Origin: a virus
Taxonomy: Duplodnaviria > Heunggongvirae > Uroviricota > Caudoviricetes
Length of the DNA stretch: 24,270 nt
Reading direction: 5' to 3' (one strand)
Virus record (IMG/VR): IMGVR_UViG_2541047718_000009
The notes below the pieces were generated by a model. It was not told where the DNA came from and made no database searches. It was given only the letters and a program-made list of their open reading frames with translations. The translations under genes were made by a program, and so were the position numbers. Numbering within the stretch: the stretch's first letter is position 1; the number at the start of each line of letters is the position of its first letter. Shown piece after piece: positions 1-20,374 of the stretch.

Positions 1-174
1 GAGGTAATACACCGTAAGAGCTGGAAAAACCGTGCAGAAGTGGAACTGGCCACACTCACGTGGGTGGACTGGTATAACAATCGACGATTGCTGGAAAGGC
101 TGGGCCATACTCCTCCGGCAGAAGCAGAAAAAGCTTATTATGCTTCCATCGGAAACGATGATCTGGCAGCCTGA
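1..174 (+). mobile_element. 3' end of an rve-type DDE transposase gene (IS3-family-like); partial at window edge, IS right end lies shortly downstream
   Basis: Frame-1 translation from position 1 reads ...KSWKNRAEVELATLTWVDWYNNRRLLERLGHTPPAEAEKAYYASIGNDDLAA and stops at TGA 172-174. The W-x-WYN-x-R ... P-x-E pattern is the characteristic C-terminus of retroviral-integrase-type (rve) transposases. The specific IS was not identified and the terminal inverted repeat could not be delimited. Confidence 0.6.
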
Positions 175-175
175 G

Positions 176-1045
176 TTCACAGATAAAACACTCTCCAGGA
201 AACCCGGGGCGGTTCAGCTTGGTACGCTGTCCAACCTGTGGGAGGCAATGACGGGGACCGCAACTAACGGCCTTGCGGCTATTGGCGGCGCATTTTCTGG
301 TGACGCCAAAAATATCACGCAATGGCTGGGGGAGTTGGGGGAAAAATTCACGAAGTTTGCGGATGAAAATCCCCGGGTTATTCGCGGCGTCGTCGGGCTT
401 GCTGCCGGTCTTGCGATTCTGAAACTGGGATTGATGGGCGTTGGCAGTGCCATCAGTATTGTCAGCAGGCTCATGTCGATGACGCCGATTGGCATGATTG
501 CGACGGCGATAGCCCTGGCTGCGGGATTAATTATCACTAACTGGGATGTTGTCGGACCTTATTTTAAGAAACTCTGGGAAACCATTGGTCCTTATTTTGA
601 GACTGGCTGGGAACTCCTTAAGAAAGTTTTTGCCTGGTCGCCGCTGGGGATGGTGATCAATAACTGGGGGCCGGTTGTTAAGTGGTTTCAGGATATGTGG
701 GACAAGCTGAAGCCAATTATTGAGTGGTTTACCGACAGTTCCGGTGACACGGTCGATGCCATTAACTCGGTGCAGTGGGGGGCGGGTGCTTATGATGCTT
801 ATGGGACGGGAATACCGGCACGGGGATACACACCTTATCCGGCGGTAGATCCGGCTCAGTCAAACAACGCCTCCGATGCCACAGGCCCGAATCCCTTCAT
901 GATTAACAAAGCTTCTGCGCCAAAAGTTGATGGTGAGATCAAGGTCTCTTTTGTGAATTCGCCTCCGGGTATGCGGGTTATGGAAACGCGATCCAGCGGT
1001 TTTGATGTCAGCCATGATGTTGGCTATACGCGCTTTGGCAGGTAA
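176..1045 (+). pseudogene. phage tail tape measure protein, C-terminal segment only (5' part displaced or truncated by the IS)
   Basis: The frame-2 ORF ending at 1045 encodes a Gly/Ala-rich hydrophobic stretch (GLAAGLAILKLGLMGVGSAISIVSRLMSMTPIGMIATAIALAAGLIITNW) and W-rich repeats typical of tape measure C-termini, directly upstream of baseplate genes. The first roughly 50 codons of the ORF-track entry (32..) overlap IS-derived sequence and are not tape measure. The 5' boundary is approximate. Confidence 0.6.
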
Positions 1046-1105
1046 TGAAAAATTAATCTGTTAATGAGTCCCACTCCGGTGGGATTTTTTATGTACGGAG
1101 TTTAT

Positions 1106-2434
1106 ATGACGTGGAAAGACAGACTTCAGGACGCGTCATTTCGCGGTGTGCCGTTTAAGGTTGAAGAAGAAAGTGCGGGAACCGGTCGTCGTGTGGAAAC
1201 GCACGAATACCCGAACCGCGACAAACCCTATACCGAAGACCTGGGGAAAATCACTTTCCGCCCGTCCATCACAGCTTATGTGGTGGGAGATGACTGCTTT
1301 GACCAGCGCGATCGCCTGATTGACGCGCTGAATAAACCCGGTCCCGGCACGCTTGTCCATCCGACTTACGGTGAGCTGAAAGTCTGTGTTGACGGGGAAG
1401 TTCGGGTCAGCACATCGAAGAGTGAAGGGCGTATTGTCCGCTTTGACCTGAAGTTTGTCGAAGCGGGAGAACTCTCTTACCCCACTTCAGGTGCGGCGAC
1501 GGCGCAGACGCTGATGTCATCCTGCTCTGCACTGGATGACTGCATCAGTGACAGCTTCAGTGGTTTCAGTATCGATGGCGTGGCGGATTTTGTGCAGAAC
1601 GACGTCGTCGGTAATGCCGGCACAATGCTGGGGTATGTTTCTGATGCGATGAAAGTGGTGGATTCTGCCGTATCGGATGCCGCCAGGCTGTTGCAGGGGG
1701 ATATCTCGGTACTTCTGCCGCCGCCATCGTCAGGCAAAAATTTCGTTGAGCAGGTGCAGAAAATGTGGCGTACCGGGAAACGCCTTTATGGTAACGCCAG
1801 CGACCTGGTCACCATGATCAAAACGCTTTCCGGTGTCAGCCTCGGCAGCGATCTGCAACCGCGCGGTGTCTGGAAAACGGACAGTAAAACCACCGCCACG
1901 GCGACGCAGCAGCGTAACGTGGTTGCCAGCATCCTTCGTACGACCGCAATCAGCGAAGCGGCGTATGCCGTCACCCGATTGCCTGCGCCAACAACTTCCG
2001 CGGTGATGCAGAATGCCGCAGTGGGGCAGGCAACAACACCCGCGCAGAGCACTGGCTGGCCTTCCGTCACGCATCCGGCACTGAACAATGCTCCGGCGGT
2101 GAAAAGCACGGTTGACCTGCCGACGTGGGAAGAACTGACTGACATTCGCGACACACTGAATACGGCAATTGATAAGGAGTTGTCCCGTACAACCAGTGAT
2201 GCGCTGTTTCTGGCGCTGCGCCGGGTGAAAGCAGATCTGAATGCGGATATCAACACGCGCCTTGAACAGTCTGCACGGATCATTCAGCGCACGCCGGATG
2301 AGGTTTTACCCGCGCTGGTGCTGGCGGCGACCTGGTTTGATAACGCGGCGCGTGACGTGGACATTATCCGGCGTAATGCCATTACGCATCCCGGCTTTGT
2401 GCCGGTGATCCCTCTGAAGGTGCCAGTGCAATGA
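1106..2434 (+). CDS. DNA circulation protein (Mu gp43/N-like), tail-associated
   Basis: The translation MTWKDRLQDASFRGVPFKVEEESAGTGRRVETHEYPNRDKPYTEDLGK... matches the N-terminal domain family of Mu N-type DNA circulation proteins. It sits between the tape measure and gp44-like genes. Start chosen at ATG 1106 because GGAG lies 5 nt upstream; the ORF track starts at 1064. Confidence 0.75.
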   Translation: MTWKDRLQDASFRGVPFKVEEESAGTGRRVETHEYPNRDKPYTEDLGKITFRPSITAYVVGDDCFDQRDRLIDALNKPGPGTLVHPTYGELKVCVDGEVRVSTSKSEGRIVRFDLKFVEAGELSYPTSGAATAQTLMSSCSALDDCISDSFSGFSIDGVADFVQNDVVGNAGTMLGYVSDAMKVVDSAVSDAARLLQGDISVLLPPPSSGKNFVEQVQKMWRTGKRLYGNASDLVTMIKTLSGVSLGSDLQPRGVWKTDSKTTATATQQRNVVASILRTTAISEAAYAVTRLPAPTTSAVMQNAAVGQATTPAQSTGWPSVTHPALNNAPAVKSTVDLPTWEELTDIRDTLNTAIDKELSRTTSDALFLALRRVKADLNADINTRLEQSARIIQRTPDEVLPALVLAATWFDNAARDVDIIRRNAITHPGFVPVIPLKVPVQ

Positions 2435-3510
2435 ACGATAACGTCACGCTACGGGTAAATGACCGGGAGTGGAATGGCTGGACATCGGTGCGCATCGGTG
2501 CCGGTGTTGAACGACTGGCGCGGGATTTCAGTGTGGAGATCACCCGCCAGTGGCCGGGAAATGAGGGTATTACCACGCTTCAGCCGCGCATTAAAAACGG
2601 TTCAAAAGTGGAAGTGCTGATTGGTGATGAGCTGGTGATCACCGGCTGGGTGGAGGCGACGCCCGTTCGTTACGATGCCCGTTCGGTCAGCACCGGTATT
2701 GCCGGACGTAGTCTGACCGCTGACCTGATTGACTGTGCAGCCGAACCGACACAGTTTAACGGACGATCGCTGGTACAGATTGCGCAGGCGCTTGCTGCGC
2801 CTTTCGGCATTGAGGTGGTGAACAGCGGTGCGCCGTCGGGTGTTATTCCTGATGTCCAGCCTGATCACGGTGAAACGGTGATTGAGGTGATCAACAAAAT
2901 ACTCGGTCAGCAGCAGGCGCTGGCTTACGACGACCCGCACGGCAGGCTGGTGATTGGCGGTATTGGCTCAACGCGTGCACATACCGCGCTGGTACTTGGG
3001 GAAAACATCCTTTCCTGTGATACGGAGAAGAGTATCCGGGAGCGGTTTTCTGTTTACCAGGTAGCGGGGCAGCGTGCCGGAAACGACGATGATTTCGGTG
3101 AGGCCACTACCACCGCGCTGCGGGCACGCACAGAGGACGCATTTATTGCCCGTTACCGTCCGATGTATATCAGGCAGACAGGGCAGGCCACGGGGGCTGG
3201 CTGTATTGCGCGTGCTGACTTTGAAGCCCGGCAACGGGCGGCGCGGACGGATGAAACCACCTATGTGGTGCAGGGCTGGCGACAGGGTAACGGTACGCTG
3301 TGGCAGCCCAACCAGCGGGTGATTGTCTTCGATCCGGTCTGTGGTTTCGACAATACCGAACTGCTTGTTTCGGAAGTCACGTTTACTCAGGACCAGAACG
3401 GCACCCTGACGGAAATCCGTGTCGGCCCGCCTGATGCTTATCTGCCTGAACCCGAAGCTCCCGGCGCGCGGAAAAAGAAAAAAGCCAGAGTACAGGAGGA
3501 CCCGTTCTGA
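2431..3510 (+). CDS. tail/baseplate hub protein (Mu gp44/P, phage late control D family)
   Basis: 359-aa product in the conserved position after the DNA circulation gene. Its start overlaps the upstream stop (ATGA), indicating translational coupling. Sequence is family-like by recall (NDNVTLRVNDREWNGWTSVRIG...). Confidence 0.7.
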   Translation: MNDNVTLRVNDREWNGWTSVRIGAGVERLARDFSVEITRQWPGNEGITTLQPRIKNGSKVEVLIGDELVITGWVEATPVRYDARSVSTGIAGRSLTADLIDCAAEPTQFNGRSLVQIAQALAAPFGIEVVNSGAPSGVIPDVQPDHGETVIEVINKILGQQQALAYDDPHGRLVIGGIGSTRAHTALVLGENILSCDTEKSIRERFSVYQVAGQRAGNDDDFGEATTTALRARTEDAFIARYRPMYIRQTGQATGAGCIARADFEARQRAARTDETTYVVQGWRQGNGTLWQPNQRVIVFDPVCGFDNTELLVSEVTFTQDQNGTLTEIRVGPPDAYLPEPEAPGARKKKKARVQEDPF

Positions 3511-4058
3511 TGAGGGCGATTGAAGCCATGCAGCGACAACTCCTCGGCCTGATTGGGCGGGCCGTGGTGAAAAGCATCAGTGCCGCCACGAAATGTCAGA
3601 CCGTGGATGTGTCCCTGATTGCCGGTGAACCCAAAGCCGGGGTTGAACATCTTGAACCCTACGGTTTTACCGCAAGGGCAAACAGCGGTGCGGAAGCGGT
3701 GGTGTTGTTTCCGGATGGCGACCGTTCTCATGCGGTGGTTGTTACGGTGTCGGACCGGCGCTACCGCCTGAAAGGGCTGCAGACGGGTGAGGTGGCTGTC
3801 TATGACGATCAGGGGCAGTCTGTGATGCTGACCCGGGAGGGGATCGTGGTGGACGGTGCAGGTAAAACGATCACGTTTCGCAATGCGCCCAGAGCACGTT
3901 TTGAAATGGACCTTGAAGTGACCGGACAGGTGAAAGACCTGTGCGACTCCGGCGGCACTACCATGTCAGCGATGCGGCTTGCCTATAACGGGCATCGTCA
4001 CAGAGAGAACGGTCAGGGCAGTAACACCGACAAACCTGATAAAGCGATGGAGGCATGA
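3510..4058 (+). CDS. baseplate assembly protein V (spike; Mu gp45-like)
   Basis: 182-aa product of gpV-like size and sequence style (MRAIEAMQRQLLGLIGRAVV...). Overlapping TGATG start-stop with the upstream gene. Confidence 0.75.
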   Translation: MRAIEAMQRQLLGLIGRAVVKSISAATKCQTVDVSLIAGEPKAGVEHLEPYGFTARANSGAEAVVLFPDGDRSHAVVVTVSDRRYRLKGLQTGEVAVYDDQGQSVMLTREGIVVDGAGKTITFRNAPRARFEMDLEVTGQVKDLCDSGGTTMSAMRLAYNGHRHRENGQGSNTDKPDKAMEA

Positions 4059-4483
4059 TGGAACTGTGGCTGACGGTGAACGGTAAACGCACCTGCGCCA
4101 GCGCACCGCTGGATCCGCTGACCCGCGCCGTGGTGATTTCCCTGTTTACCTGGCGGCGGGCGGAGCCTGATGACAACGCCGACGTCCCGATGGGATGGTG
4201 GGGGGATACCTGGCCTGCGGTACAGAATGACCGTTACGGCTCCCGACTGTGGCTGCTTCAGCGCAGCAAACTGACCAATCAGCTGGTGCAGACGGTAAGG
4301 GGGTATATCCGCGAATGCCTGCAATGGATGATTGATGACGGCGTGGTGTCCCGTATTGATCTGGATATCCGCCGCACCGGGATTAATGAACTGGGTAACA
4401 GTATCACTCTCTGGCGTCGTGACGGACCGGTAATGATTTCTTTTGATGATCTGTGGAGTGCGATAACGCATGGCGGACAGTGA
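4055..4483 (+). CDS. baseplate protein (Mu gp46 / GP25-W-like)
   Basis: 142-aa product in the conserved position between V-like and J-like genes. The start may be ATG 4058, which has better spacing to GGAGG at 4049-4053. Confidence 0.7.
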   Translation: MMELWLTVNGKRTCASAPLDPLTRAVVISLFTWRRAEPDDNADVPMGWWGDTWPAVQNDRYGSRLWLLQRSKLTNQLVQTVRGYIRECLQWMIDDGVVSRIDLDIRRTGINELGNSITLWRRDGPVMISFDDLWSAITHGGQ

Positions 4484-5528
4484 ATTTCAGCGCCCGACGC
4501 TGGCAGAAAATATCAGTATGCTCCGTAACGATTTATTCGCCAGGCTGGACGTCAGCGACACGCTCCGGCGCATGGATGAAGACGTGCGGGCAAAGGTGTA
4601 TGCGGCAGCGCTGCATACGGTTTACGGGTACATCGATTATCTGGCAATGAATATGCTGCCTGACCTGTGCGATGAGTCCTGGCTGGCGCGACATGCTGCG
4701 ATGAAACGGTGTCCGCGCAAGGGGGCCACGGCTGCCAGCGGGTATATGCGCTGGGAAGGTGTCAGCGATGGCCTGAAGGTGACTGCCGGGAGCGTGATTC
4801 AGCGCGATGACCTGGTTCAGTACACGGCAACTGCCGATGCAACCAGCGCCGGTGGTGTCCTGCGTGTGCCGATCACTTGCTCAACTACAGGCGCGGTCGG
4901 TAACGCTGACGACGGTACGGCATTAATCCTGGTCACGCCGGTGAATGGTCTGCCGTCTTCCGGTGTTGCAGATACCCTGACTGGCGGATTCGATACTGAA
5001 GATCTGGAAACGTGGCGCGCCCGCGTCATTGAGCGGTATTACTGGACGCCGCAGGGCGGGGCTGACGGGGACTATGTCGTCTGGGCTAAAGAAGTGCCCG
5101 GCATTACCCGCGCATGGACATACCGTCACTGGATGGGAACGGGAACTGTCGGTGTGATGATTGCCAGCAGTGACCTGATTAATCCCATTCCGGAAGAATC
5201 AACGGAAACGGCGGCAAGACAACATATCGAGCCACTGGCCCCGGTGGCAGGCTCTGATTTGTATGTGTTCAGGCCGGTGGCACATACGGTGGATTTTCAT
5301 ATCCGTGTGACGCCGGACACACCGGAAATACGGGCTGCCATCACCGCCGAGTTGCGTTCGTTCCTGCTGCGTGATGGTTATCCGCAGGGAGAACTGAAGG
5401 TGTCGCGTATCAGTGAAGCGATTTCCGGTGCGAACGGGGAATACAGCCATCAGTTGCTTGCACCAGCGGACAATATCTCCATTGCAAAAAATGAGCTGGC
5501 AGTTCTGGGGACGATTTCATGGACGTGA
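4470..5528 (+). CDS. baseplate J-like protein (Mu gp47-like)
   Basis: 352-aa product in the conserved order; overlaps the upstream gene by 14 nt. Confidence 0.75.
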
Positions 5529-6103
5529 CAAACGATGATTACATCCGTCTGTTGTCGGCGCTGCTGCCGCCCGGTCCGGCGTGGTCAGCCAGCGATCCGG
5601 CGATTGCCGGTGCGGCACCGTCATTAACTCGTGTTCATCAGCGTGCGGATGCCCTGATGCGGGAGCTGGATCCGCGCACCACCACCGAACTGATAAATCG
5701 CTGGGAGCGTCTGTGCGGCCTGCCGGATGAATGTATTCCCGCAGGGACACAGACCCTTCGCCAGCGTCAGCAACGGCTGGATGCGAAGGTTAACCTGGCG
5801 GGTGGCATCAACGAGGATTTTTATCTTGCACAGCTTGCTGCCCTGGGCAGACCAGATGCCACCATCACGCGATACGACAAAAGCACGTTCACCTGCTCAT
5901 CGGCCTGTACTGACGCGGTGAATGCGCCGGAATGGCGGTATTACTGGCAGGTCAACATGCCAACCACCACCAACACCACCTGGATGACATGTGGCGATCC
6001 CTGTGATTCCGCACTGCGTATCTGGGGTGACACCGTTGTCGAGTGTGTGCTTAACAAACTCTGCCCGTCGCATACCTACGTAATTTTTAAATATCCGGAG
6101 TAA
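5519..6103 (+). CDS. tail protein, DUF2313 / YmfQ / Mu gp48-like
   Basis: 194-aa product ([27 protein letters not shown]...) in the position directly upstream of the tail fiber gene; overlaps the J-like gene end. Confidence 0.7.
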
Positions 6104-6106
6104 TCC

Positions 6107-7057
6107 ATGCATCGTATAGACACGAAAACCGCGCAGAAGGATAAGTTCGGCGCGGGTAAGAACGGTTTTACCCGTGGTAACCCCCAGACCGGCACACCTG
6201 CCACCGATTTGGATGATGACTACTTTGACATGTTGCAGGAAGAACTTTGCAGCGTGGTGGAGGCCTCCGGTGCCAGCCTGGAGAAGGAGCGGCACGACCA
6301 GTTGCTTACCGCGCTTCGTGCGCTGCTGTTAAGCCGCAAGAATCCGTTTGGTGATATCAAATCGGACGGCACGGTGAAAACGGCTCTCGAAAATCTTGGT
6401 TTGGGAGATGGCTCCGGGAGGCTTATACAGTGTCAGGTGTTTAAAAGCTCAGGTACATACACTCCGACAAAAGGCACAAGATTTATTATTGTTGAAATTG
6501 TTGGTGGTGGTGGGGCCGGTGGTGGTTGTCAGGTCGGTTATCCCAATAATGCTGCTTGTGGTGGCGGGGGGATGTCTGGGGAGTATGTTAAAGCTCGCGT
6601 GGATAATCCAACCGTAACTACTGTGACAATAGGATATGGTGGCACTGGTGCAAGTGCGTCGGTTGGTGCTCCCGGGGGAGCAACCTCTTTCGGCAATACC
6701 ATAATTGCCAAAGGTGGTCTTGGTGGGAATGTTCTTGCTGAAGGCACTGCTCCTGGGGTTGTTGGTCCGTATGGAGCATATACTGAGCCGGGATTTACAG
6801 GTGCCAATATTATCGGGTCTGGAAGCGGTTATAGCTCACCAGGCGTTCGGTATTCCGGCAGTCTGGCGATGGGGGGGCCTGGCGGCGATTCAATCCTTGG
6901 TGCGGGGGCTGGGTCACAAGCCATTGTAGGCGAAGGTATTAATGCTAATGGCCATGGTGGTGGAGGCGGTGGTGCCTGTGTCTACGGTGGAGCGACGCAG
7001 CAGCGTGCCGGAGGTAGCGGAATGGCTGGTATTGCAATCATTTGGGAGTATGCGTGA
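6107..7057 (+). CDS. tail fiber protein: conserved N-terminal anchor region plus glycine-rich C-terminal distal domain
   Basis: ATG 6107 with GGAG 6 nt upstream. The N-terminal ~95 aa ([40 protein letters not shown]...) resemble prophage side-tail-fiber N-termini. The C-terminal two thirds are Gly-rich (GGGGAGGG..., HGGGGGGA) and the coding DNA becomes visibly more AT-rich from about 6400. Confidence 0.8.
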
Positions 7058-7452
7058 TGAACTATGCCGTTATAGAAAATGGTGTTGTTACCAATATTGC
7101 TGTATGGGATGGTGAGAGTGCCTGGCAACCAACTAATGCGTTAGTTATACCTGTATCCGATAATGTAAGAATTGGTTGGTTCTATGATAAGGGAAAGCTT
7201 TCGTCACCTACGCAGCCGCCAAAAACACATGATGAATTACTTCGTGAGGCAGAGAATGAAAGACAGTGTCTGCTGGATAGTGCTAATAGTTTAATTATGA
7301 ACTGGCAGTCAGATTTGTTACTCGGTATTATAAGTGAAAATAACAAGGGCAATCTTTTATTATGGAAGGAATATGTTAATAGTTTAATGTCAGTGGATTT
7401 ATCTTTAGTGCCAGAAATAACCTGGCCTGAAAGGCCAGAGATAATACGTTGA
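7057..7452 (+). CDS. tail fiber assembly chaperone (Tfa)
   Basis: ATGA overlap with the fiber stop at 7055-7057. The product [25 protein letters not shown]... has the typical Tfa N-terminus and size. The ORF track begins 5 codons earlier at 7042. Confidence 0.75.
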   Translation: MNYAVIENGVVTNIAVWDGESAWQPTNALVIPVSDNVRIGWFYDKGKLSSPTQPPKTHDELLREAENERQCLLDSANSLIMNWQSDLLLGIISENNKGNLLLWKEYVNSLMSVDLSLVPEITWPERPEIIR

Positions 7453-7469
7453 AATTATGTGGTGTATTA

Positions 7470-7489
7470 TTAGGGGGAGGCCCCCCTAA
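7470..7489. terminator. GC-rich hairpin between convergent tfa and acyltransferase genes (putative bidirectional terminator)
   Basis: TTAGGGGG (7470-7477), loop AGGC, CCCCCTAA (7482-7489): a perfect 8-bp stem. No clean U-tract on either side. Confidence 0.4.
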
Positions 7490-7493
7490 TAAA

Positions 7494-8519
7494 TTAGGAT
7501 GTGATTATTTTTCTGATTTTATCGTTCTTCTCCAGAAAGTGATAAGATAATGATGCCATTGCAGTATTAATAACAAAAAGTACAAGCCAGCTAAAAAGAC
7601 CATAGTTAAGAACAAATGAATTTTTATTATGATCAAGGTAATATAATATAGGTAATTGCATCAAATAAAACGAATAACTTATATCTCCAAAGTAAATGAT
7701 CGCTCTGTTTACAATATTGTTTTTGATGTTGATTTTTGCCAGGTGCAATAACATAATTGATATCGCAGGAATTGTGAGATAGTTCACCCCCATGGAGTTA
7801 TTGTTTTGCTGGGTGGTAGCATACAGAAATAATAAAATGCTTAATAGCCATGTATAATGGTTAACACGATAGCCATTTAAAAAAAGTATTGCGATACAGA
7901 CGCCCACCACAAATTCTGGTAACCTGTATATTGGAGTTGCGTAATATACGGACCAAACTACAGGTCCCTGAATTATATCAGATAATGGGATTAATAATGC
8001 TGAAGATAAATATGAAAAAAGTAAAACATAAATTACATTGTTTTTGTTGATGTTTTTTATCAAAAATGGAAATAGGGCATAAAAAAACAATTCCACTGAT
8101 ATTGACCAGGTACCGCTAAAATTCCAAAAATCGAAGGTCTGATAAATCCATGATTGCATTCCAGTAACAAACAAGAATATGCTTGCAATCATTTTTAAAA
8201 AGTTTGCATCGCTGGATAACAAAAATGGGAGGGTTAAAAGCCCACAAAATAAATAGGCTGGAAATATTCTTGCTATTCGCTTCCTGAAGTAATTGTTTGA
8301 CAAGGAACCATAGTAATTATAAGTCAAAACAAAACCAGAAAGCATGAAGAAAATACTCATGCCAATGACGCCATTGCTAATGGTTTTATTAATAAGCTCT
8401 CCAAAATTAACGGGGACTCTCATGTTAATGTGAAAAATAAACACATAAAAAGCAGCTATAAATCTTAAGATTGTTACTCCATCCATTTTTTTTCTTGTTA
8501 TGTTATTGGTACTAGTCAT
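7494..8519 (-). CDS. acyltransferase family 3 integral membrane protein (putative O-antigen / surface polysaccharide O-acetyltransferase)
   Basis: 341-aa very hydrophobic product with the family signatures: N-terminal R..H (GVTILRFIAAFYVFIFH), FFMLSGF and W-S-I-S-V-E-L-F-F-Y. The gene is strongly AT-rich relative to the flanking tail genes. Confidence 0.8.
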   Translation of the reverse strand: MTSTNNITRKKMDGVTILRFIAAFYVFIFHINMRVPVNFGELINKTISNGVIGMSIFFMLSGFVLTYNYYGSLSNNYFRKRIARIFPAYLFCGLLTLPFLLSSDANFLKMIASIFLFVTGMQSWIYQTFDFWNFSGTWSISVELFFYALFPFLIKNINKNNVIYVLLFSYLSSALLIPLSDIIQGPVVWSVYYATPIYRLPEFVVGVCIAILFLNGYRVNHYTWLLSILLFLYATTQQNNNSMGVNYLTIPAISIMLLHLAKINIKNNIVNRAIIYFGDISYSFYLMQLPILYYLDHNKNSFVLNYGLFSWLVLFVINTAMASLSYHFLEKNDKIRKIITS

Positions 8520-8715
8520 TTGAGGCTTCTCATGATTAAAAGGTTCGTTATTAAAACCATTAATAATACTCTACTTACTTATCAAGTATCAACGTTTTTA
8601 TGTGTGGTTTTAATTAACAGAATGCAAGAATAAATAATAATATTCTGTTTGCGATTTTTTAAATAATTGCACTTACTACTCCTCAGTGCGAGGGAGAATT
8701 GAGGATGGAATTGGG

Positions 8716-8858
8716 GGCTCCGTCCAAAATTTACCCCTGAATAATGGGTGTAGGCCAGGCGATTAATTGCATCAGGCGTTCCTCGCCAGAAGGTGGCGAT
8801 CATCTATGATGTTGGTATATCGACACTGTATAAGAAGTTTCCGGTCGGAGATAAATGA
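8716..8858 (+). pseudogene. remnant of a Gin/Pin/Hin-family serine DNA invertase (C-terminal HTH only; frameshifted, catalytic domain absent)
   Basis: The frame ending at TGA 8856-8858 reads ARRLIASGVPRQKVAIIYDVGISTLYKKFPVGDK, closely matching the C-terminal DNA-binding end of Gin/Pin-type invertases as I recall them (...QVALIYDVALSTLYKK...). An upstream GG-rich stretch (about 8730-8750) is recognisable only across frameshifts, and no N-terminal catalytic domain is encoded in 8520-8715. Confidence 0.65.
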
Positions 8859-8918
8859 AACCGTAGCACGTCGTATGCAAGAAGATCGTGCTGCGGTTTA
8901 TGCTTATCACTTAAAGAC

Positions 8919-9788
<870 letters not shown>

Positions 9789-10094
9789 CTAATCCTTTGA
9801 ATTTACATAGTAAAAAAAGATACTTTTCCTCATAGTGTGAATTAATTTTATGTTTCGTTTGATGATTGGACCGGTCTCGAAAACCGTAGGCACGTAGTAT
9901 GCGTTAATTTATGAGCAAACTACTTGTCTGCTGTTTTTCTGTCATTAGTCGTATATAGAATGATTCTCTATGCCTAACAAAGCATCACTAGTGCTAGATT
10001 ACGTTGTAGTCACTGTTTAAATATCCAGACAAAACATTTCCTTCTGGGTTGAATGAGTGATAGAGTTTCACCCATTAGACCCCTTGGAGGAATT

Positions 10095-11528
10095 ATGTCT
10101 GAATTTGAAGTGTTGGCACAGCATCTGCTGAAGGAAGCCGAGGCGGAAGAAAAGCTGCGACAGGAAAATGATAAAAAGCTTATCGAGAAAGTGCTGGAAA
10201 TCTATGATCAGAAGTATGTGGCTGAATTACTGAGAAAAGTCGGAAAAAATGAGTGGAGCCGTGAAACCATTAACCGCTGGATTAATGGCAAGTGTTTACC
10301 AAAATCGTTGACGTCAGTAGAAGAGTCTCTTCTGCGTAAGATGCTACCAGAACCACCTGCAAACCATCCGGAATATGCTTTCCGCTTCATTGACTTATTT
10401 GCTGGAATTGGAGGGATACGAAAAGGTTTTGAGGCTATTGGAGGCCAGTGTGTTTTTACCAGTGAATGGAATAAAGATGCTGTGCGTACATACAAGGCCA
10501 ACTGGTTTAACGATGAACAGGTGCATAAATTCAATCTCGATATTCGGGAAGTCACGTTGAGTGATAAAACCGATGTATTGGAAACGGATGCTTATGCATA
10601 TATTGATGAGCATGTGCCGGATCATGATGTGCTTCTTGCGGGGTTCCCGTGCCAGCCATTTAGTCTTGCTGGTGTTAGTAAGAAAAACTCACTTGGCCGT
10701 GCGCATGGTTTTGAATGTGAAGCACAAGGAACACTTTTTTTTGACGTGGCACGTATTATACGAGCAAAAAAACCGGCAATTTTTGTGCTGGAAAATGTCA
10801 AAAATCTGAAGAGCCATGATAAGGGTAAAACTTTCAAAGTCATTATGGAGACCCTTGACGAGCTGGGCTACGAAGTTGCCGATGCTGCAGAAATGGGAAA
10901 AAACGATCCAAAGATTATCGATGGGAAGCATTTTTTGCCTCAGCATCGTGAACGCATTGTTCTGGTCGGATTTAGACGAGATCTGAATATTCACAAGGGG
11001 TTTACCTTGCGTGATATCAGTCGTTTTTATCCGGAACACCGCCCATCATTTGGTGAATTGCTGGAGCCTGTAGTCGACAGTAAATATATACTTACGCCAA
11101 AACTATGGGAGTACCTTTATAACTACGCCAAAAAGCATGCAGCCAAGGGGAATGGTTTTGGCTTTGGGTTGGTCAATCCTGAGAATAAGGAAAGCATTGC
11201 ACGCACACTTTCTGCCAGATATCACAAAGACGGATCAGAAATTCTTATTGATCGTGGTTGGGATATGGCAACGGGAGAGGCTGACTTTATGAATGAGAGT
11301 AATCAGGCTCGTCGACCACGCAGGCTGACTCCCCGAGAGTGCGCACGCCTTATGGGATTTGAAAAACCTGGAGGGAAACCATTCCGTATTCCGGTTTCAG
11401 ATACTCAGTCATATCGGCAGTTCGGTAACTCAGTTGTGGTGCCAGTATTTGAAGCTGTTGCCAGACTTCTGGAACCCTATATCCTCAAAGCTGTTTCTGC
11501 TGATGCTGGTAAGACTGGGCAGCCTTGA
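10095..11528 (+). CDS. DNA (cytosine-5) methyltransferase, Dcm / M.EcoRII-like
   Basis: C5-MTase motifs are present: [12 protein letters not shown] (motif I), [11 protein letters not shown] (motif IV, catalytic Cys), ENVKNL (motif VI), [10 protein letters not shown] (motif X). ATG 10095 is preceded by GGAGG at 10086-10090, giving a 477-aa product; the ORF track start at 10053 lacks an RBS. Confidence 0.9.
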
Positions 11529-11534
11529 GAACAC

Positions 11535-11557
11535 CTCCCGGCCTTTTAAGCCGGGAG
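11535..11557. terminator. hairpin between convergent methyltransferase and restriction genes
   Basis: CTCCCGGC (11535-11542), loop CTTTTAA, GCCGGGAG (11550-11557). Confidence 0.4.
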
Positions 11558-11562
11558 TCAGC

Positions 11563-12777
11563 CTATGATAGTTCAGCGTAAAGCTCTATCAGCTCAGTAA
11601 TGAATGCTCCGAGCGTTATTAATTCTTCTCTAACTGCTTCTGGGTATTTTTTATGTAAAGTTGATGGTACAACGAGTCTGACACCCGCATCTTTCATTTC
11701 TCGGTATTGTGCTGAAGAAACACCTTCTTGCAGTGTAAATAAATGTACCTGATGGATTTTATCTGCTTCATTCAGTATCTGACGCCAGCGATCTTTGCAG
11801 GTGGTCTTTACTGCCAGCATACGTAAGTTTTCTACAGGAAATTCAACGTTATGATATGCCTCTGCTGAAGGAAACAGGAAATCTGGTTTTTTATTACCTT
11901 CAGTAACTGCCTGAGTGGAGAAATGCCGTAGTCCGTGCTCGATAAAAAGCTTCTCTAGGTGAAGTTCAAGTGATTTGCCTGCCCTTGATTTACGTCGATT
12001 ACTGACAGAGTTGGCTAATGCAATAAACTCATCTACAGAATCGAATCCTTTCTTAATAATATCAAGAACATGTAATTCCTCGACGAGTAGAAAAATATCA
12101 TACTCGACACGCCGACGGTCAATCAGTTGCTCATCTGGATCCTTGGAGTTTTTAGCATAATGGCCAGCAGCATATTGAATAATTTCGTTTCCAGAAGGAA
12201 AACGCTTCTTCCAGTCTTCAGGAATAACATATTTATGATTTACTGGAGTTTGCTGAAGAGATAATCCGCCCAAAATTTGTCCGGCAGGGCCGGAAATTAG
12301 GGTTCCAGGTATGATTTCGCCAATAGCAGACTCGATGATATCCTCTTCATCGGGATTGACGCAGACCCATATATCTACCTCGGAACAGTCAGTGTTCTGT
12401 TCGTTTAACCTGAAAGCAAGAATTGTGAGAGCTCCTGTATTTTCAGGGTTCTGTAATGGACTTCCTCTCCCCCAGCGCGTAATTCTTTTTTCGTTTCGGG
12501 TCTTACCAAAATAACGGTTGTTGTAATAAATTGCGCGTGCTTGGGTATCAGGGCAATCATGGGATGATACATGCGCAGTAAGGAAGACTGAAGGGTTCAG
12601 TTCGCGAGTATGATTGATAGATGGAAAAAGCTTTTCAACGATATTTGAGGGGATATAAAGTCCGACCTGATGGCCACCTGTTGCGCCAGTGTCGTTTGCA
12701 GAAAGGCGTTTGATGTAGATAAAGTAATTCCCGCTTGCGATATCAAGCAGCCAGTTATGAAAAACCGACATATACAT
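11563..12777 (-). CDS. type II restriction endonuclease, EcoRII family (CCWGG-type)
   Basis: 404-aa product whose N-terminus (MSVFHNWLL..YIKRLSANDTGATGGHQVGLYIPS) matches my recollection of R.EcoRII. It is convergent with a Dcm/M.EcoRII-like methylase. Family assignment is by recall, not a search. Confidence 0.7.
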   Translation of the reverse strand: MYMSVFHNWLLDIASGNYFIYIKRLSANDTGATGGHQVGLYIPSNIVEKLFPSINHTRELNPSVFLTAHVSSHDCPDTQARAIYYNNRYFGKTRNEKRITRWGRGSPLQNPENTGALTILAFRLNEQNTDCSEVDIWVCVNPDEEDIIESAIGEIIPGTLISGPAGQILGGLSLQQTPVNHKYVIPEDWKKRFPSGNEIIQYAAGHYAKNSKDPDEQLIDRRRVEYDIFLLVEELHVLDIIKKGFDSVDEFIALANSVSNRRKSRAGKSLELHLEKLFIEHGLRHFSTQAVTEGNKKPDFLFPSAEAYHNVEFPVENLRMLAVKTTCKDRWRQILNEADKIHQVHLFTLQEGVSSAQYREMKDAGVRLVVPSTLHKKYPEAVREELITLGAFITELIELYAELS

Positions 12778-12858
12778 CCCTTTGTTAGCATACAGTCAGG
12801 GTTAACATTTTTCCATAGTTATAGATAAGCGGCTAGGAACTTAAGGGAAAAACAAAAA

Positions 12859-12880
12859 GCCCGCATAAGCGGGCTTTTGT
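12859..12880. terminator. bidirectional rho-independent terminator candidate
   Basis: GCCCGC (12859-12864), loop ATAA, GCGGGC (12869-12874), followed by TTTTGTG on the + strand and preceded by AAAAA (a U-tract on the - strand). A second perfect 14-nt palindrome GGAGCCGCGGCTCC follows at about 12889-12902. Confidence 0.5.
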
Positions 12881-13005
12881 GTCACTCGGGAGCCGCGGCT
12901 CCTTTGCGTATCCTTTTTTGTCTCCTCACCGTCTGGTCGGTGTCCTGCTGAGACTGCTAACTTCCTGTTTTTGTTGGTGTTGTCCTTACACCGTCCAATC
13001 ATGAT

Positions 13006-13028
13006 TGGTGGAGCTGGCGGAGTTTGAA
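13006..13028. repeat. distal att site of the P4-like element (direct repeat of the ssrA 3' end)
   Basis: TGGTGGAGCTGGCGG at 13006-13020 is identical to 23869-23883 (complement of the tmRNA 3' terminus ...CCGCCAGCUCCACCA), with AGTTTGAA versus GAGTTGAA continuing the similarity. A 14-nt perfect palindrome CCAATCATGATTGG overlaps its left edge (12995-13008). Confidence 0.7.
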
Positions 13029-13162
13029 TAAATATTGTATTGCTTTGATTTTTAATGATTTTATTTAATTTAGTTTTTGTGCGTATACTTAATCGTATAC
13101 CAATGGCTGTAAGTTAATGTGAAATGAAAGCGCATTTTTACTTGGATTGATGCTATATCGTA

Positions 13163-13468
13163 CAGGAAAAAAATTTTTTTTCGAAAGAACTGTTCACACT
13201 GTTCACCTTTCTTTTTTCTCCTTTTATTTCAGAGTGATAGGTGGTGAATAATGGGTGAAGGGTGAACATTCGATTCTTCACCTCCGGCATTCTGCCGGTG
13301 TGACTCATACCGGTGATTAATCCCCCGTACTGAAATCACTCAGGAAGAAAAAAGTTTTTTTTGATTTGATTGTTCACACTGTTCACCTTTCGTTTTTCTC
13401 TTTTAATTTCAGTATGATAACGGGTGAATATACGGTGAAGGGTGAACACTGGATTGTTCACCTTCGGG
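13163..13468. repeat. crr-like cis replication region: two ~125-bp direct repeats carrying TGTTCACC / GGTGAACA iterons
   Basis: Unit 1 is about 13163-13286 and unit 2 about 13343-13468, period 180 bp. Exact octamers TGTTCACC occur at 13200-13207, 13380-13387 and 13455-13462, and GGTGAACA at 13261-13268 and 13441-13448, with further one-mismatch variants. Located immediately 3' of the alpha gene, as in P4. Confidence 0.75.
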
Positions 13469-13480
13469 GGATGTCGGGAT

Positions 13481-13506
13481 AAAAAAAAGACCGGCAGATG
13501 CCGGTC
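13481..13506 (-). terminator. rho-independent terminator after alpha
   Basis: On the minus strand: hairpin GACCGGCATCTGCCGGTC (13489-13506) followed by eight U (13481-13488), 8 nt after the alpha stop codon. Confidence 0.7.
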
Positions 13507-13513
13507 AGGTGGG

Positions 13514-15847
13514 TCAGGTTGTTGCAGGGGCGTCACATTTTGGCAGCCAGTCGCCGTAGCTTTCCTCTTTCAGCGTCAGGTTGGTCTGTATCCCCTGTTT
13601 GGTATGGCGCTTCTCGTAATTCAGCCCGTATTCTTTCAGCATCACCGGTAGCCCCAGTCCGAACATTTTCAGACTGAGTACATTCCGGTAGCCGTTTGCC
13701 TCCATGTAGGCCAGATAGGCGTGATAGAGGTATTTACGGTAATTACGCGGGATGATACTGGCGTTCCCCATATACATGCCGCTGGTCTGCGGCAGGGTTT
13801 CCAGATAGCCGATAAAATCAAACGTCGGGTCGGCATCCCGTTTGATGTTCAGTGCCTCGTCTGAGTTCTGCTGGGACTGAAGCAGTGACCGGGCGAGCAT
13901 CGGGTCGCTGAACTTCTGCATCAGGTGACGCACGATGACCGCCAGCTCGCGGGTGATTTTGTCCTTAAGCTGCGGGTCGCGCTCCTGCGGGGCTATCTGT
14001 TCCGGGAAGTGAATAATCACCCGCCGGCGTGACACGCCGCCGCTGCGGTCGGTGAAGCGCATCGGGTTATTGTTCACGGCCAGAATCACCGCCGGGATGT
14101 GCGTGGAGTACGCATCCCGGTATTTCGGGTCAACGGACACTGCATCGCCGCCGGTGATGGCCTTGAGTCCGGCTCCGTCGCCGCTCCATTTTTCCTGGTC
14201 CGGCAGGCGTATCAGTGAGAAGCCAGTTAACGCGGCACGTTCACGCGGGGATTCCAGCGTCTCAATGGTGGCCGACGTGGCGTTATCCTCACCGGCCAGC
14301 AGGGTGGCTATTTCGGCCATGATACTTTTGCCGCTGCCGCCGGGACCGGTCACCTCCAGAAAGAGCTGCCAGTCGTAGCGGTTTGCCAGCACCATAAACA
14401 GTGCGGCCAGAATCACGTCGCGTTTTTCCGCACGACCACCGGCAGCACGGTCAAGCCAGCGCCAGAACGCGGGAGCGTGGGTTTCCAGCGTTTCACCGTC
14501 CACCGGCGGGGTGAAATCCACATCACACAGGGTACGCATCCAGTGTGACGGACTGTGCGGGTGGAACGTACCGTTCTGCGTGTCGAGCACGCCGTTACGA
14601 AAGCCAATCAGGCGGCGGGAGGGGGCTTCCTGCTGCGGAATAATCAGCTTCAGGGTGTCCACCACGGAGGCCACCTTCCCGGAGGAGAACGGCGCGCGCA
14701 GACGCTGAAACAGCCCGGCCACATCCCGGGCAAAGTCCTGTGGCGGCAGCACCTTCCAGACACCATTTTCATAGCGGGACAGAAGCTGGCCGTTGGCATC
14801 GACCGCGAGCGCCTCGCCGTAATGCTCATAGATACGCATGGCCTTTTCGCTGGTACTCATGGCGGAAAACTCCGCTTCGCTCATGGTGTCGAACGGGCTT
14901 TCAGCCGGTGGCCGGATGGCATCATAAATGGCCTTACGGGTGGCTTCCCCGCCGTACTGCGTGAAGGCATCATTCCAGTCACCGAAGACCGGCGGCAGGG
15001 CAACAACACCTTCACACGCATCTGCGGCTGCGGCGGCTTTTTTCTGGCCGTCACCGCTGAGGTCACGGTCAGCAGCAAGGACAATCTGACAGGCCGGATG
15101 CTTCTGCCGGGCAAGGCTGGACAGAGAAAGGAGATTCACGGAAGAAAGCGCCACCATCACCGTTTCACCGGTCAGGTGATGCACGGTAAGTGCGGTCGCG
15201 TATCCCTCCGCTATCCACAGACGTTTTCCGGCCTGATTCTGTCCTTCAAGGGTGTGACAGGTGCCCCTGACCTGTCCGCCTTTCAGGGTGCGCTTACGGC
15301 CGTCAGCACTGATTAACTGAAGGTTAACCAGTTCGCCGCTGTCGTCATACAGTGGCACCACAAGGTCACCAGCACGCCAGCTCACGCCACCGGCTCTGTG
15401 TGTGCCGGTCAGCATCCGGCATTCCCGGCCGGGAAAGCCCTTGCGGGTCAGGTAGGCGTTACCGGTTCCGGGACGGGTTTTCGCTATCAGGGTTTGTGCC
15501 AGTGCGGCGGCGTTCTTCCGGGCAGCGTCTGTTTCAGCACCGGCGGCGGCCGTCACTGCCGGGTCAGCCGGGGGCAGGCTGCCGGTCACGGCAGCCACCT
15601 TTGCGGCCGCGTCGGACGGGGAGACACCAAACACCTTTTCAACCAGTTTCAGGCCGTCACCGGCACCACACTGATTGCAGTACCAGGTGCCGCGCCCCTC
15701 CCTGTCATCAAAACGGAAGCGGTCACTCCCGCCACAGACCGGACAGGGCTGATGACGGTTTTTCAGCACCTGAATCCCCAGCGCCGGGAGAATACGCGGC
15801 CAGTGGCCGAGCGCATGGCTGACGGTGGCGGTTACGTTCATTTTCAT
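13514..15847 (-). CDS. alpha: P4 alpha-type primase-helicase (replication initiator)
   Basis: 777-aa product with an N-terminal zinc-binding CPVCGG...CNQCG motif and a primase/D5-type helicase arrangement; I recall P4 alpha as about the same length. AAGGAG lies 9 nt upstream of ATG 15847. Flanked by iteron regions. Confidence 0.85.
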   Translation of the reverse strand: MKMNVTATVSHALGHWPRILPALGIQVLKNRHQPCPVCGGSDRFRFDDREGRGTWYCNQCGAGDGLKLVEKVFGVSPSDAAAKVAAVTGSLPPADPAVTAAAGAETDAARKNAAALAQTLIAKTRPGTGNAYLTRKGFPGRECRMLTGTHRAGGVSWRAGDLVVPLYDDSGELVNLQLISADGRKRTLKGGQVRGTCHTLEGQNQAGKRLWIAEGYATALTVHHLTGETVMVALSSVNLLSLSSLARQKHPACQIVLAADRDLSGDGQKKAAAAADACEGVVALPPVFGDWNDAFTQYGGEATRKAIYDAIRPPAESPFDTMSEAEFSAMSTSEKAMRIYEHYGEALAVDANGQLLSRYENGVWKVLPPQDFARDVAGLFQRLRAPFSSGKVASVVDTLKLIIPQQEAPSRRLIGFRNGVLDTQNGTFHPHSPSHWMRTLCDVDFTPPVDGETLETHAPAFWRWLDRAAGGRAEKRDVILAALFMVLANRYDWQLFLEVTGPGGSGKSIMAEIATLLAGEDNATSATIETLESPRERAALTGFSLIRLPDQEKWSGDGAGLKAITGGDAVSVDPKYRDAYSTHIPAVILAVNNNPMRFTDRSGGVSRRRVIIHFPEQIAPQERDPQLKDKITRELAVIVRHLMQKFSDPMLARSLLQSQQNSDEALNIKRDADPTFDFIGYLETLPQTSGMYMGNASIIPRNYRKYLYHAYLAYMEANGYRNVLSLKMFGLGLPVMLKEYGLNYEKRHTKQGIQTNLTLKEESYGDWLPKCDAPATT

Positions 15848-15861
15848 GGTGTTGTTCTCCT

Positions 15862-16182
15862 TCAGTGCAGTACCGGCGCTTTTATGTGACGGGCACAGAG
15901 TTCATCCATCACAACCAGCCCGAGAAAGGACAGCGACGGCGCGGCCTTCAGGGGGCCGGATTCCATTAAATCTTCCAGCAGGGCACAGGCTATCTGACGC
16001 CCTTTTTCCTCACCGTGCTGGCGCAGATAAAAGCCTTCCAGCTCAGCGGCGATGGCCGCCTCCAGTGATTCAAGGGTGAGATGCGGGTAGCGGTGCTGAC
16101 GTTCGCACACGGTCAGCCAGGCACAGGCGACAGCACGACGGTAAAGGGCTGCGCGTAAGACGGGCGGTAAGGGTGTTTTCAT
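15862..16182 (-). CDS. hypothetical protein of the P4-like left operon (106 aa)
   Basis: GGAGG 6 nt upstream of ATG 16182; stop lies 14 nt before the alpha start. Function unknown. Confidence 0.6.
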
Positions 16183-16317
16183 TTGCTTTCCTCCCTGTGA
16201 CAGATGACTGCATTCCGTGCCGGTTGCATTAACTGATAAGGCATATCTGCGTCTCCTGAAGACGTGCGTATCCCTGCGCGAATACGCACATTTAATTTTT
16301 CGGGTGTCGTTTTTTAA

Positions 16318-16773
16318 TTACAGATAATTGCGGTAACTGTTATCCGGGGTGGTTTCCGGGTCAGGCTCCGTGCGGGGAATTTCCCGCCATTCCCGCGCCA
16401 CCGGTGCCGCCCGGCTGACCGGAACAGGGGCCTGCGGGTAAATATCCAGATATTTCTCCCGCCATTTCTGTAATTCCGGGTCTCCGGCCATTTCTTTCAG
16501 TACCGCATGCCGGTTTACGGGGCTGCGTTTAAACAGGTCAGGACGGTCACAGGTAAATTCCCGCAGAAAACGCCCCAGCGGGATGTCTGTGGTGCGCCCG
16601 TCAGCGAGGATACGCACAAGGATACTGAATTTACGGCGGTACGGGTTCCAGACAATGTCCGGGCAGCGGTACGGCATTTCCCACGGAATACCGTCTTCCA
16701 GAATGCCGACCACGGCCACATCGGGAAAACCGGCAGAACGGTAAATCTCACCGGGCTGGGGAAAATCAAACAT
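16318..16773 (-). CDS. hypothetical protein of the P4-like left operon (151 aa; P4 orf151-like by position and size)
   Basis: GGGGAG RBS upstream of ATG 16773; overlaps the stop of the upstream small gene. Confidence 0.6.
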   Translation of the reverse strand: MFDFPQPGEIYRSAGFPDVAVVGILEDGIPWEMPYRCPDIVWNPYRRKFSILVRILADGRTTDIPLGRFLREFTCDRPDLFKRSPVNRHAVLKEMAGDPELQKWREKYLDIYPQAPVPVSRAAPVAREWREIPRTEPDPETTPDNSYRNYL

Positions 16774-17053
16774 GCGTCCTGTCTCCCCGGTCTTTCTGCT
16801 GGGCGAGAAAATCGCGGCACAGGCCTTTGGCTTTCAGCTCATTCAGCACAAAATCAATATCTTCATTCAGGTAGCTGAAAATATGCGGAATGTAGAGCTG
16901 ATGCAGGCCGGAGAGTTCACGGTGAATCAAATCCCCCCCAACAAACTGGGATACGGCGCTGGCGCGGTTGAGCTTATGGTAAGCCTCAATGCTGAGGTGT
17001 TCACGGGCGTCATGACGTGCTGAGACGGTCTGAGGGGCTTTTTTATTACGCAC
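16766..17053 (-). CDS. small left-operon protein (95 aa), possible epsilon-like derepressor (assigned by position only)
   Basis: GTG 17053 is preceded by GGAGG with 6-nt spacing. The longer ORF-track version (to 17209) adds a Cys/Pro-rich N-terminus without an RBS and is judged spurious. Confidence 0.4.
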
Positions 17054-17243
17054 GGGACACCTCCACCACCGGCAGACGGGCAGCAAGGGAGAGCACATAG
17101 TCACGGACAAGGGAACGGCGGGCACTGCGTTCATCACCGGCGACGGTGCGAAGCATACAGATACGGGGATGACGGTCTGCGCGACGGACAGCCGCAAACA
17201 CAAAGACAAATTCAGGGTGTGAAGGGGTAAGGGTTGTAGCCAT
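17046..17243 (-). CDS. small protein (65 aa), unknown function
   Basis: ATG 17243 is preceded by GGAGG at 8-nt spacing; its stop overlaps the start of the 95-aa gene, suggesting coupling. It is the C-terminal part of ORF-track entry 17046..17690, whose upstream portion lacks support. Confidence 0.4.
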
Positions 17244-18291: not shown

Positions 18292-18370
18292 GTAAAATAT
18301 AAAAAAACAAACAGTAAGCCGGTTTTTCCTGCGACCTTTTCCTGGCTTGCCGGTCTGAGGATGAGTCTCC

Positions 18371-20338: not shown

Positions 20339-20374
20339 AATTCCCCGAAAATCCGCCCGTTTTTACTGAAAAAA

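Follow-up and report, generated by a model that had tools for sequence, protein, structure and literature searches.

The closest described counterpart of the locus analysed here is the P-segment/PinE switch of prophage e14 in E. coli K-12, with the gene order ycfK/stfP-tfaP-tfaE-stfE-pinE. The G segment of phage Mu with its invertase Gin, the C segment of P1 with Cin, and Hin of Salmonella belong to the same class of switch, which combines a serine invertase bearing an HTH_7 C-terminus with 26-bp dyad sites. In gin, hin and cin, the 5' part of the invertase gene also holds a Fis-dependent recombinational enhancer. The serotype-converting Shigella phages SfV, SfI, SfII and SfIV form a further point of reference, and SfV-like phages carry LPS-modifying morons.

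The window, i.e., the whole stretch of 24,270 nucleotides that was analysed, very probably contains what is left of an e14-type Pin/P-segment switch for tail-fibre inversion, located in a defective SfV/e14-like E. coli prophage next to ssrA. The locus is thus a decayed member of a known and well-understood system, with the following features:

6107-7057, plus strand: intact 316-aa tail-fibre ORF, chimeric, with a StfP-type N-terminal anchor joined to a glycine-rich tip (ORF list, translation, domains)
6107-6408, plus strand: constant (Sc-like) part of the fibre; its orthologs are e14 stfP/ycfK and the fibre N-termini of SfV-like phages (nucleotide identity)
6384-6409, plus strand: orphan pixL-type crossover site CTCTCGAAAATC-TT-GGTTTGGGAGAT, identical to e14 pixL at 24/26 positions
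6409-8707, no strand assigned: 2299-bp block in place of the 2351 bp that hold the invertible segment, pixR and pin codons 1-134 of an intact relative (blastn)
6409-7057, plus strand: fixed variable part, a glycine-rich fibre tip (Gly_rich_2, PF21722, E 2.2e-10)
7057-7452, plus strand: tfa, the tail-fibre assembly chaperone for the fixed tip (Caudo_TAP, PF02413, E 2.4e-23)
7470-7489, no strand assigned: GC-rich hairpin TTAGGGGG-AGGC-CCCCCTAA, read from the sequence
7494-8519, minus strand: 341-aa membrane acyltransferase (Acyl_transf_3), an O-acetyltransferase-like moron (Pfam, PHROG)
8520-8707, minus strand: AT-rich leader of the acyltransferase gene with promoter-like hexamers, ending at the pin deletion joint (sequence)
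8708-8858, plus strand: pinE pseudogene remnant, codons ~135-184, HTH_7 DNA-binding domain only (alignment to pinE, Pfam, PGAP)

In the fibre protein, PHROG tail-fibre families cover residues 1-105 and Pfam Gly_rich_2 covers residues 116-312. The ORF is also intact in other carriers, and the RefSeq call of a pseudogene ('StfP, missing C-terminus') is misleading for what is an intact chimeric fibre. The constant part is 96-97% identical to K-12 e14 and to the prophage of E. coli PigCaeca_1 up to 6408-6411 (96% at the nucleotide level for e14), and SfV, SfI, SfII and SfIV have the baseplate and fibre N-terminal module in common with the window at about 96% nucleotide identity up to 6408-6414. 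The fibre tips of the SfV-like phages, however, differ from that of the window, and the tip of PigCaeca_1, a Gp53-like_C domain, is unrelated to it. In contrast to e14, the variable part consists of an unrelated Gly-rich tip followed by the acyltransferase gene. Directly downstream of the fibre gene, and overlapping its stop codon at 7057, lies the Caudo_TAP gene, which PGAP annotates as 'tail fiber assembly protein'. A preliminary description of this DNA had placed a turn to AT-rich composition at 6384-6409. This was not borne out: GC content stays at 0.51-0.57 until ~7050 and then falls to 0.40 and to 0.30 in the tfa and acyltransferase genes, while the features that change at 6400 are homology and GC skew (Gly codons). 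A real junction does lie at 6400, even though base composition is no argument for it.

The acyltransferase gene has a GC content of 30-34%. Residues 14-316 of its product match the full-length Acyl_transf_3 membrane domain (PF01757, E 2.6e-26), and PHROG 3333, 'O-acetyltransferase', is matched at E 1.7e-40; a role in O-acetylation and lysogenic conversion is predicted. A promoter-like TTGATA-18-TATTAT occurs in the leader at 8592-8563 on the minus strand. The hairpin at 7470-7489 lies between the convergent stop codons of tfa and the acyltransferase gene, and was not called in the terminator scan.

Positions 6384-6409, which read CTCTCGAAAATCTTGGTTTGGGAGAT, encode ...LENLGLGD... in the fibre reading frame, where the constant part meets the variable one. 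This is the position expected of a crossover site in e14- and Mu-type segments: in e14 the site falls at the same codon position, and in the Mu, P1 and Hin class, too, one of the sites is read through in frame as part of the fibre gene, at an 'NLGL' motif. Of the 26 bases, 24 are shared with e14 pixL, both in K-12 and in strain PigCaeca_1. The published e14 inverted repeat is TTGGTTTGGGAGAAGG (PMC12529663), and 15 of its 16 bases are present here. Position and sequence alike make this stretch the ortholog of pixL, the crossover site of e14. The gix/hix-like dyad of the preliminary description is therefore real and reads as it was given; its estimate of 8-9 matches in 12 per half came close to the 8/12 and 7/12 that we obtained with gixL read from the Mu sequence. 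The pattern of the site is present once in the window where none is expected (1 observed vs 0 expected). There is no second, inverted site beside the invertase gene, as this was the single match in the window at ≤3 mismatches or ≤6 substitutions, and no counterpart of pixR of PigCaeca_1 and K-12 was found in the window.

The 3' end of an invertase gene is also preserved. K-12 pinE aligns to 8708-8859 with 79% nucleotide identity (E 2e-32), and a tblastn search with PinE recovered residues 138-184 alone, at 77% identity (E 8e-20). The pinE genes of other E. coli are up to 92.9% identical to this 3' end; the invertases of Mu, P1 and Hin are more distant homologs, with about 73-79% nucleotide identity over part of the HTH region. 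Once its stops are repaired, the peptide matches HTH_7 (PF02796, E 1.2e-10), the C-terminal domain characteristic of the Din family, and its final 32 residues are identical to PinE of PigCaeca_1. The frame is interrupted by a 1-nt deletion near 8717/8718 and by in-frame stops at 8742-8744 (TAA) and 8751-8753 (TAG), and PGAP calls a pseudogene ('HTH domain-containing protein, internal stop, missing N-terminus'). The claims that a Gin/Pin-type HTH is encoded at 8754-8858, that the frame is broken just upstream and that the catalytic domain is lacking thus all held, the first of them for exactly the open stretch described. The N-terminal resolvase catalytic domain (PF00239) with its active-site serine is absent: no Resolvase-domain similarity was found across the window, and none to the pin N-terminus in 6300-8900. 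Since the whole 5' 400 bp of pin are missing, the Fis-dependent enhancer would, by its location in gin, hin and cin, be missing too. A 190-aa ORF in the adjacent island (19766-20338), considered as a trans-acting invertase, is Psu and not a recombinase.

A related prophage with an intact invertible segment, which the preliminary description had proposed to look for, is present in E. coli PigCaeca_1 (NZ_CP039298.1, locus L008). It shares the prophage backbone and the downstream GIY-YIG and restriction-modification genes with the window; the baseplate genes, ymfQ, the fibre constant part, GIY-YIG, the C5-methyltransferase and the type II endonuclease match at 97.5-98.9% nucleotide identity, and the GIY-YIG protein WP_000355484.1 is identical in both. 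Its switch is intact, comprising tip, tfa, inverted tfa', inverted tip', pixR and a full-length pinE (184 aa, PF00239 at residues 3-135). With blastn, 2760-6408 and 8708-13024 of the window align to this relative, and nothing aligns between them. The breakpoints, at 6408/6409 and 8707/8708, coincide with the crossover site and with the start of the remnant, which indicates that an ancestral Pin-type switch, as previously proposed, was replaced by the acyltransferase-bearing block. PigCaeca_1 keeps a 2.35-kb stretch that comprises the invertible segment, pixR and pinE codons 1-134; the window has a 2.3-kb cassette there. The tfa' and Sv' genes of PigCaeca_1 had no tblastn match in the window, and an alternative tip and chaperone in opposite orientation are absent, the minus-strand gene there being that of the Acyl_transf_3 protein.

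The same cassette, consisting of the Gly-rich tip, tfa, the Acyl_transf_3 gene and the truncated pin, was found in 66 of 5426 complete E. coli genomes (megablast), always with the acyltransferase and the remnant. Complete genomes contain five full-length matches, all of them collinear with the window. It is ~98% identical across unrelated prophage backbones, including ones at other chromosomal sites, and is joined inside the crossover site to at least two unrelated fibre anchors, a 96-aa StfP-type one and a 149-aa one of the DUF2612-backbone type. The leader sequence is identical up to the joint in all copies. One and the same pin deletion joint is found in every copy, which suggests that the cassette arose once; in IMG/VR, 9/9 close matches carry the same truncated pin. 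An intact ancestor of the tip (Gly-rich tip and tfa followed by tfa', tip' and invertase) was not found among the 5426 E. coli genomes by megablast. Neither the cassette or its ancestor nor the pin remnant had a match in deposited phage genomes (blastn, tblastn), and among GTDB species representatives the tip had no match and tfa a single irrelevant one. Phage vB_EcoM-689R6, which has the fibre constant part and an invertase, was set aside as uninformative, being a partial genome with an odd layout. We also rejected a 13-nt perfect inverted repeat (6422-6434/8822-8834) as a trace of aberrant inversion: a 13-mer inverted repeat turned up in 95 of 300 block shuffles of this region, and cassette copies in other backbones lack the right arm.

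These comparisons suggest the following course of events. The ancestral order would be the one still present in PigCaeca_1, namely fibre constant part, pixL, tip A, tfaA, inverted tfaB, inverted tip B, pixR and pinE, in which Pin would invert the pixL-pixR segment and thereby join one tip or the other in frame to the constant part. The stretch from the right half of pixL through pin codon ~134 would then have been replaced by a non-invertible cassette of glycine-rich tip, chaperone and a convergent, AT-rich Acyl_transf_3 gene with its own promoter region. This would have cost the prophage its second crossover site, the alternative tip with its chaperone and the invertase catalytic domain, as well as, by inference, the Fis-dependent enhancer. 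With these gone, the switch should be unable to work, unlike those of Mu and P1, which are functional, and the fibre would be locked as one in-frame fusion. The direction from switch to cassette is inferred from the pseudogene state of pin.

How the replacement came about can be judged from the pin remnant, which is a mosaic: 8708-8757 is of the cassette type, with 11 differences from PigCaeca_1, and 8758-8858 is identical to the resident-type pinE of that strain, the identity extending to 8978. If acyltransferase DNA had inserted into the prophage's own invertible segment, deleting pixR, the alternative tip and the pin N-terminus and leaving the Gly-rich tip and tfa as the original 'A' orientation genes, the net architecture would be the same, and both flanks, to 6408 on the left and from 8758 on the right, are indeed native to the backbone. 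Such decay in place is nonetheless unlikely, given that an identical deletion joint and a ~98% identical block recur at other chromosomal sites and behind unrelated fibre anchors, and given the recombination joint within pin. Judging from these comparisons, the block is a pre-formed cassette in which pin was already truncated. Its entry here seems to have been by recombination inside pixL on the left and inside the pin 3' end on the right, where the window changes from cassette-type to PigCaeca_1-type variants between 8757 and 8777. Of the earlier proposal that the switch was destroyed when cargo was inserted, the loss of the switch and the presence of the acyltransferase block in its place stand; the loss was probably not by insertion into this prophage's own switch. 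Spread of the cassette may likewise have used the crossover-site/'LGLG' region and the pin 3' end, and sequence alone fits import by either homologous recombination or invertase-mediated exchange at the site.

Two further readings concern the site itself. The dyad might be a chance resemblance in a native, contiguous fibre gene, with the invertase fragment as the only real relic; the fibre ORF is uninterrupted, and the motif could persist for protein reasons, since it encodes a conserved LGLG peptide. This is refuted by its orthology, in position and sequence, to an experimentally defined e14 crossover site and by the homology breakpoints to e14, PigCaeca_1, SfV-like phages and other backbones, every one of which lies within 6384-6409. 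Alternatively, the orphan site may still be used, with Pin-family invertases elsewhere in the genome acting in trans on it and on a pix site of another prophage, causing large inversions or tip exchange, so that the locus would not be fully dead. In K-12, PinQ, PinR and PinE each invert the e14 P segment in trans (PMC12529663), and the site differs from pixL at only 2/26 positions. However, the 24 kb contain no partner site, no invertase and no enhancer-bearing pin 5' region, IAI39 has a single place matching 5500-9900 of the window (megablast level), and the C-to-T change at 6394, specific to this lineage, adjoins the site core. Continued use in trans is accordingly very improbable, and we favour a dead switch whose middle was exchanged for a cassette.

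The locus leaves knowledge of Pin/Gin-type inversion unchanged; it shows, base by base, the death of a phage host-range switch. The remaining crossover site has been kept because it codes for a piece of the fibre; of the invertase, the HTH persists as a pseudogene, and a fixed tip and a moron have overwritten the middle. The Din crossover site and the invertase 3' end also mark the exchange boundaries of fibre-tip cassettes between unrelated prophages of E. coli, those of the laboratory strains B, BL21 and C among them. Tentatively, and with the odds rather against it, the 2.4-kb block (right half of pixL, Gly-rich tip, tfa, O-acetyltransferase-like gene, truncated pin) could be a self-contained module that is exchanged between unrelated prophages via two conserved flanks and links a receptor-binding tip to an envelope-modifying enzyme, with the crossover site and the pin 3' end retained as recombination 'handles'. 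A single unit of inheritance would then combine host-range specificity with superinfection exclusion or serotype conversion.

The fibre locus of this prophage is a decayed member of the Din family (Pin/Gin/Cin/Hin) of fibre-inversion systems; it is homologous to a working switch, yet does not itself classify as one. It belongs to the final portion of a defective SfV/e14-like prophage whose baseplate genes are of the Mu type. Positions 1-13028 are collinear with Escherichia coli IAI39, and over 5500-9900 this strain and four other complete genomes are 99.9-100% identical to the window. An IS3 element cuts the tape-measure gene short: in IAI39, this IS3-family element sits directly upstream of the tape-measure fragment (window 1-1045), so that everything 5' of the baseplate module is gone from the prophage. 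From ymfQ, which precedes the fibre ORF, onwards, the genes follow in the order listed.

32-1045: ORF, C-terminal fragment of the tape-measure gene
6107-7057: fibre ORF, 316 aa
6384-6409: dyad CTCTCGAAAATC-TT-GGTTTGGGAGAT
7057-7452: tfa
7470-7489: GC-rich hairpin with an 8-bp stem amid AT-rich DNA, in the gap separating tfa from the convergent acyltransferase gene
7494-8519, minus strand: Acyl_transf_3 gene
8708-8858: invertase fragment
8919-9743, minus strand: LEM-3-like GIY-YIG protein
10053-11528: DNA cytosine (C5-) methyltransferase
11563-12777, minus strand: type II restriction endonuclease

The preliminary description placed the C-terminal HTH of an invertase at 8754-8858, and alignment to pin bore this out. 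In blastn, K-12 pinE, the serine invertase gene of e14, gave a single match in the window (8708-8859, 79% identity, E 2e-32), and tblastn aligned PinE residues 138-184 (36/47 identical, E 8e-20). With its two in-frame stops (TAA 8742-8744 and TAG 8751-8753) read as Gln, the 47-aa remnant peptide matches Pfam HTH_7 (E 1.2e-10). The frameshift proposed just upstream corresponds to a 1-nt deletion ahead of the PinE-aligned stretch in tblastn, and the catalytic domain is absent as described, with no resolvase-domain similarity anywhere in the window. RefSeq already labels the remnant a pseudogene ('HTH domain-containing protein, internal stop, missing N-terminus').

Around the K-12 e14 P segment, the sole long inverted repeat is AAACCTTGGTTTGGGAGAAGG / CCTTCTCCCAAACCAACGTTT, whose arms are separated by 1797 nt. 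It is at these repeats, TTGGTTTGGGAGAAGG, that PinQ, PinR and PinE invert the segment in experiments (PMC12529663). The dyad at 6384-6409 is identical to pixL, the left e14 crossover site, at 24 of 26 positions and occupies the equal codon position in the orthologous gene; its pattern occurs once in the window, against none expected by chance. The dyad is therefore real and, by orthology and beyond mere resemblance, a Pin-type crossover site. The likeness to gix/hix sites claimed earlier, 8-9 of 12 positions per half, is close to the 8/12 and 7/12 per half counted against gixL from the Mu genome, with the GGTTT inner motif in common. The proposed switch to AT-rich DNA at about 6384-6409 is incorrect: a GC content of 0.51-0.57 persists until about 7050, and the AT-rich DNA (GC 0.30-0.40) is that of the tfa gene and the acyltransferase gene with its leader. 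Within the site, a C-to-T change at 6394 is peculiar to the lineage of IAI39. A 13-nt perfect inverted repeat (6422-6434 / 8822-8834, CTTATACAGTGTC / GACACTGTATAAG), with arms just past the crossover site and in the pin HTH, was taken as chance, as 95 of 300 block shuffles yield such a repeat.

An intact relative was found in E. coli PigCaeca_1 (locus L008, NZ_CP039298.1), which shares the prophage backbone and is ordered as baseplate genes, ymfQ, fibre, tfa, inverted tfa', inverted tip', pinE, GIY-YIG, methyltransferase and endonuclease. Its PinE is intact (184 aa, with both Resolvase, residues 3-135, and HTH_7), whereas the window retains a fragment; the cargo at the prophage end (8919-12777) is common to both, and the GIY-YIG protein (WP_000355484.1) is identical. 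L008 aligns to window 2760-6408 at 97.5% and to 8708-13024 at 98.9%, with no alignment over 6409-8707. The junction near 6400 is real, and 2299 bp of the window thus take the place of 2351 bp of L008 comprising tip A, tfaA, tfaB', tip B', pixR (the right crossover site) and pin codons 1-134. When these lost parts were used as queries at the protein and nucleotide level, no remnant of them turned up in 6300-8900, except that pixR matches the window's lone site in inverted orientation. The window switch therefore lacks partner site, alternative cassette and enzyme. By analogy with gin, hin and cin, the enhancer located towards the 5' end of the invertase gene is probably missing as well.

The replacement is a pre-formed cassette of Gly-rich fibre tip, tfa, Acyl_transf_3 gene and truncated pin. 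Of 5426 complete E. coli genomes, 66 contain the block 6385-8819 at ~98% identity, accompanied in every one by the acyltransferase and truncated pin. It is found on window-type backbones at different attachment sites (L005 near tRNA-Pro/yejM, L006 near bioA) as well as on an unrelated baseplate backbone of the DUF2612 type, where the fibre has another N-terminus of 149 aa (L003, L009). The fibre ORF is intact on both anchor types (316 or 369 aa) with a common 220-aa C-part, and the sole sequence common across anchors is the crossover site, TCTCG.A.A.CTTGGTTTGGGAGA. In strains C, B and BL21 the cassette is left-truncated: it starts at ~6539 window-equivalent and has lost the crossover site together with the first part of the tip. 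The leader/pin joint (8707/8708), the 1-nt deletion and the stops are the same in all copies, which implies a single origin of the pin deletion. The window remnant differs from L008 at 11 positions clustered in 8717-8757, then at none until 8979, and other cassette copies carry different variants at 8777-8779 and 8801; the remnant is therefore chimeric. We suggest that the cassette recombined into the prophage, with the left crossover inside pixL and the right one between 8757 and 8777, within the 3' end of pin. Among other cassette carriers (L003 8410-9867, L004 8374-9711, L006 9411-10748), an insertion at window-equivalent 8819 interrupts the pin remnant once more. It consists of a 445-485-aa ORF without assigned function and, after it, another acyltransferase gene, so that morons have accreted in one more layer at the same spot.

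The present fibre is locked in the form of a StfP-anchor::Gly_rich_2 fusion and has a cognate Caudo_TAP chaperone. In IAI39, the RefSeq annotation of the fibre gene covers just its first 307 nt (ECIAI39_RS25065, 6107-6413), named a 'StfP, missing C-terminus' pseudogene, with no annotation beyond them. Contrary to this label, the 316-aa ORF is uninterrupted and conserved in other carriers. The acyltransferase (Acyl_transf_3 family, O-acetyltransferase PHROG) is preceded by an AT-rich leader of its own that contains promoter-like hexamers; this fits a putative lysogenic-conversion moron. The 7470-7489 hairpin may be a bidirectional terminator; a simple terminator scan made no call there.

In IAI39, ssrA follows directly after the endonuclease. 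The window has a 10.8-kb island (13029-23868) between the prophage remnant and ssrA that this strain lacks. By its gene content, it looks like a P4-like satellite.

about 12997-13024 and 23869-23896: ssrA 3'-end repeat
13514-15847, minus strand: primase/D5 helicase
17046-17690, minus strand: Ash
19192-19692: Ogr/Delta
19766-20338: Psu
20657-22465: ResIII/DEAD-box helicase ORF, 602 aa, AT-rich (31-37% GC), between psu and int
22497-23729, minus strand: integrase
23869-24231, minus strand: ssrA, tmRNA

The psu-int interval of P4-like satellites is a common place for anti-phage cargo, and the 602-aa helicase may be a defence gene.

E. coli commonly carries inactive invertase fragments next to fibre genes. 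Crossover-site regions as exchange points for fibre modules are an established idea from work on P1, p15B and P2 fibres. Neither the annotation nor the literature searched makes explicit that the pixL is an orphan or that a cassette has replaced the switch. With head and tape-measure genes lost from the prophage, host-range switching would be moot anyway.
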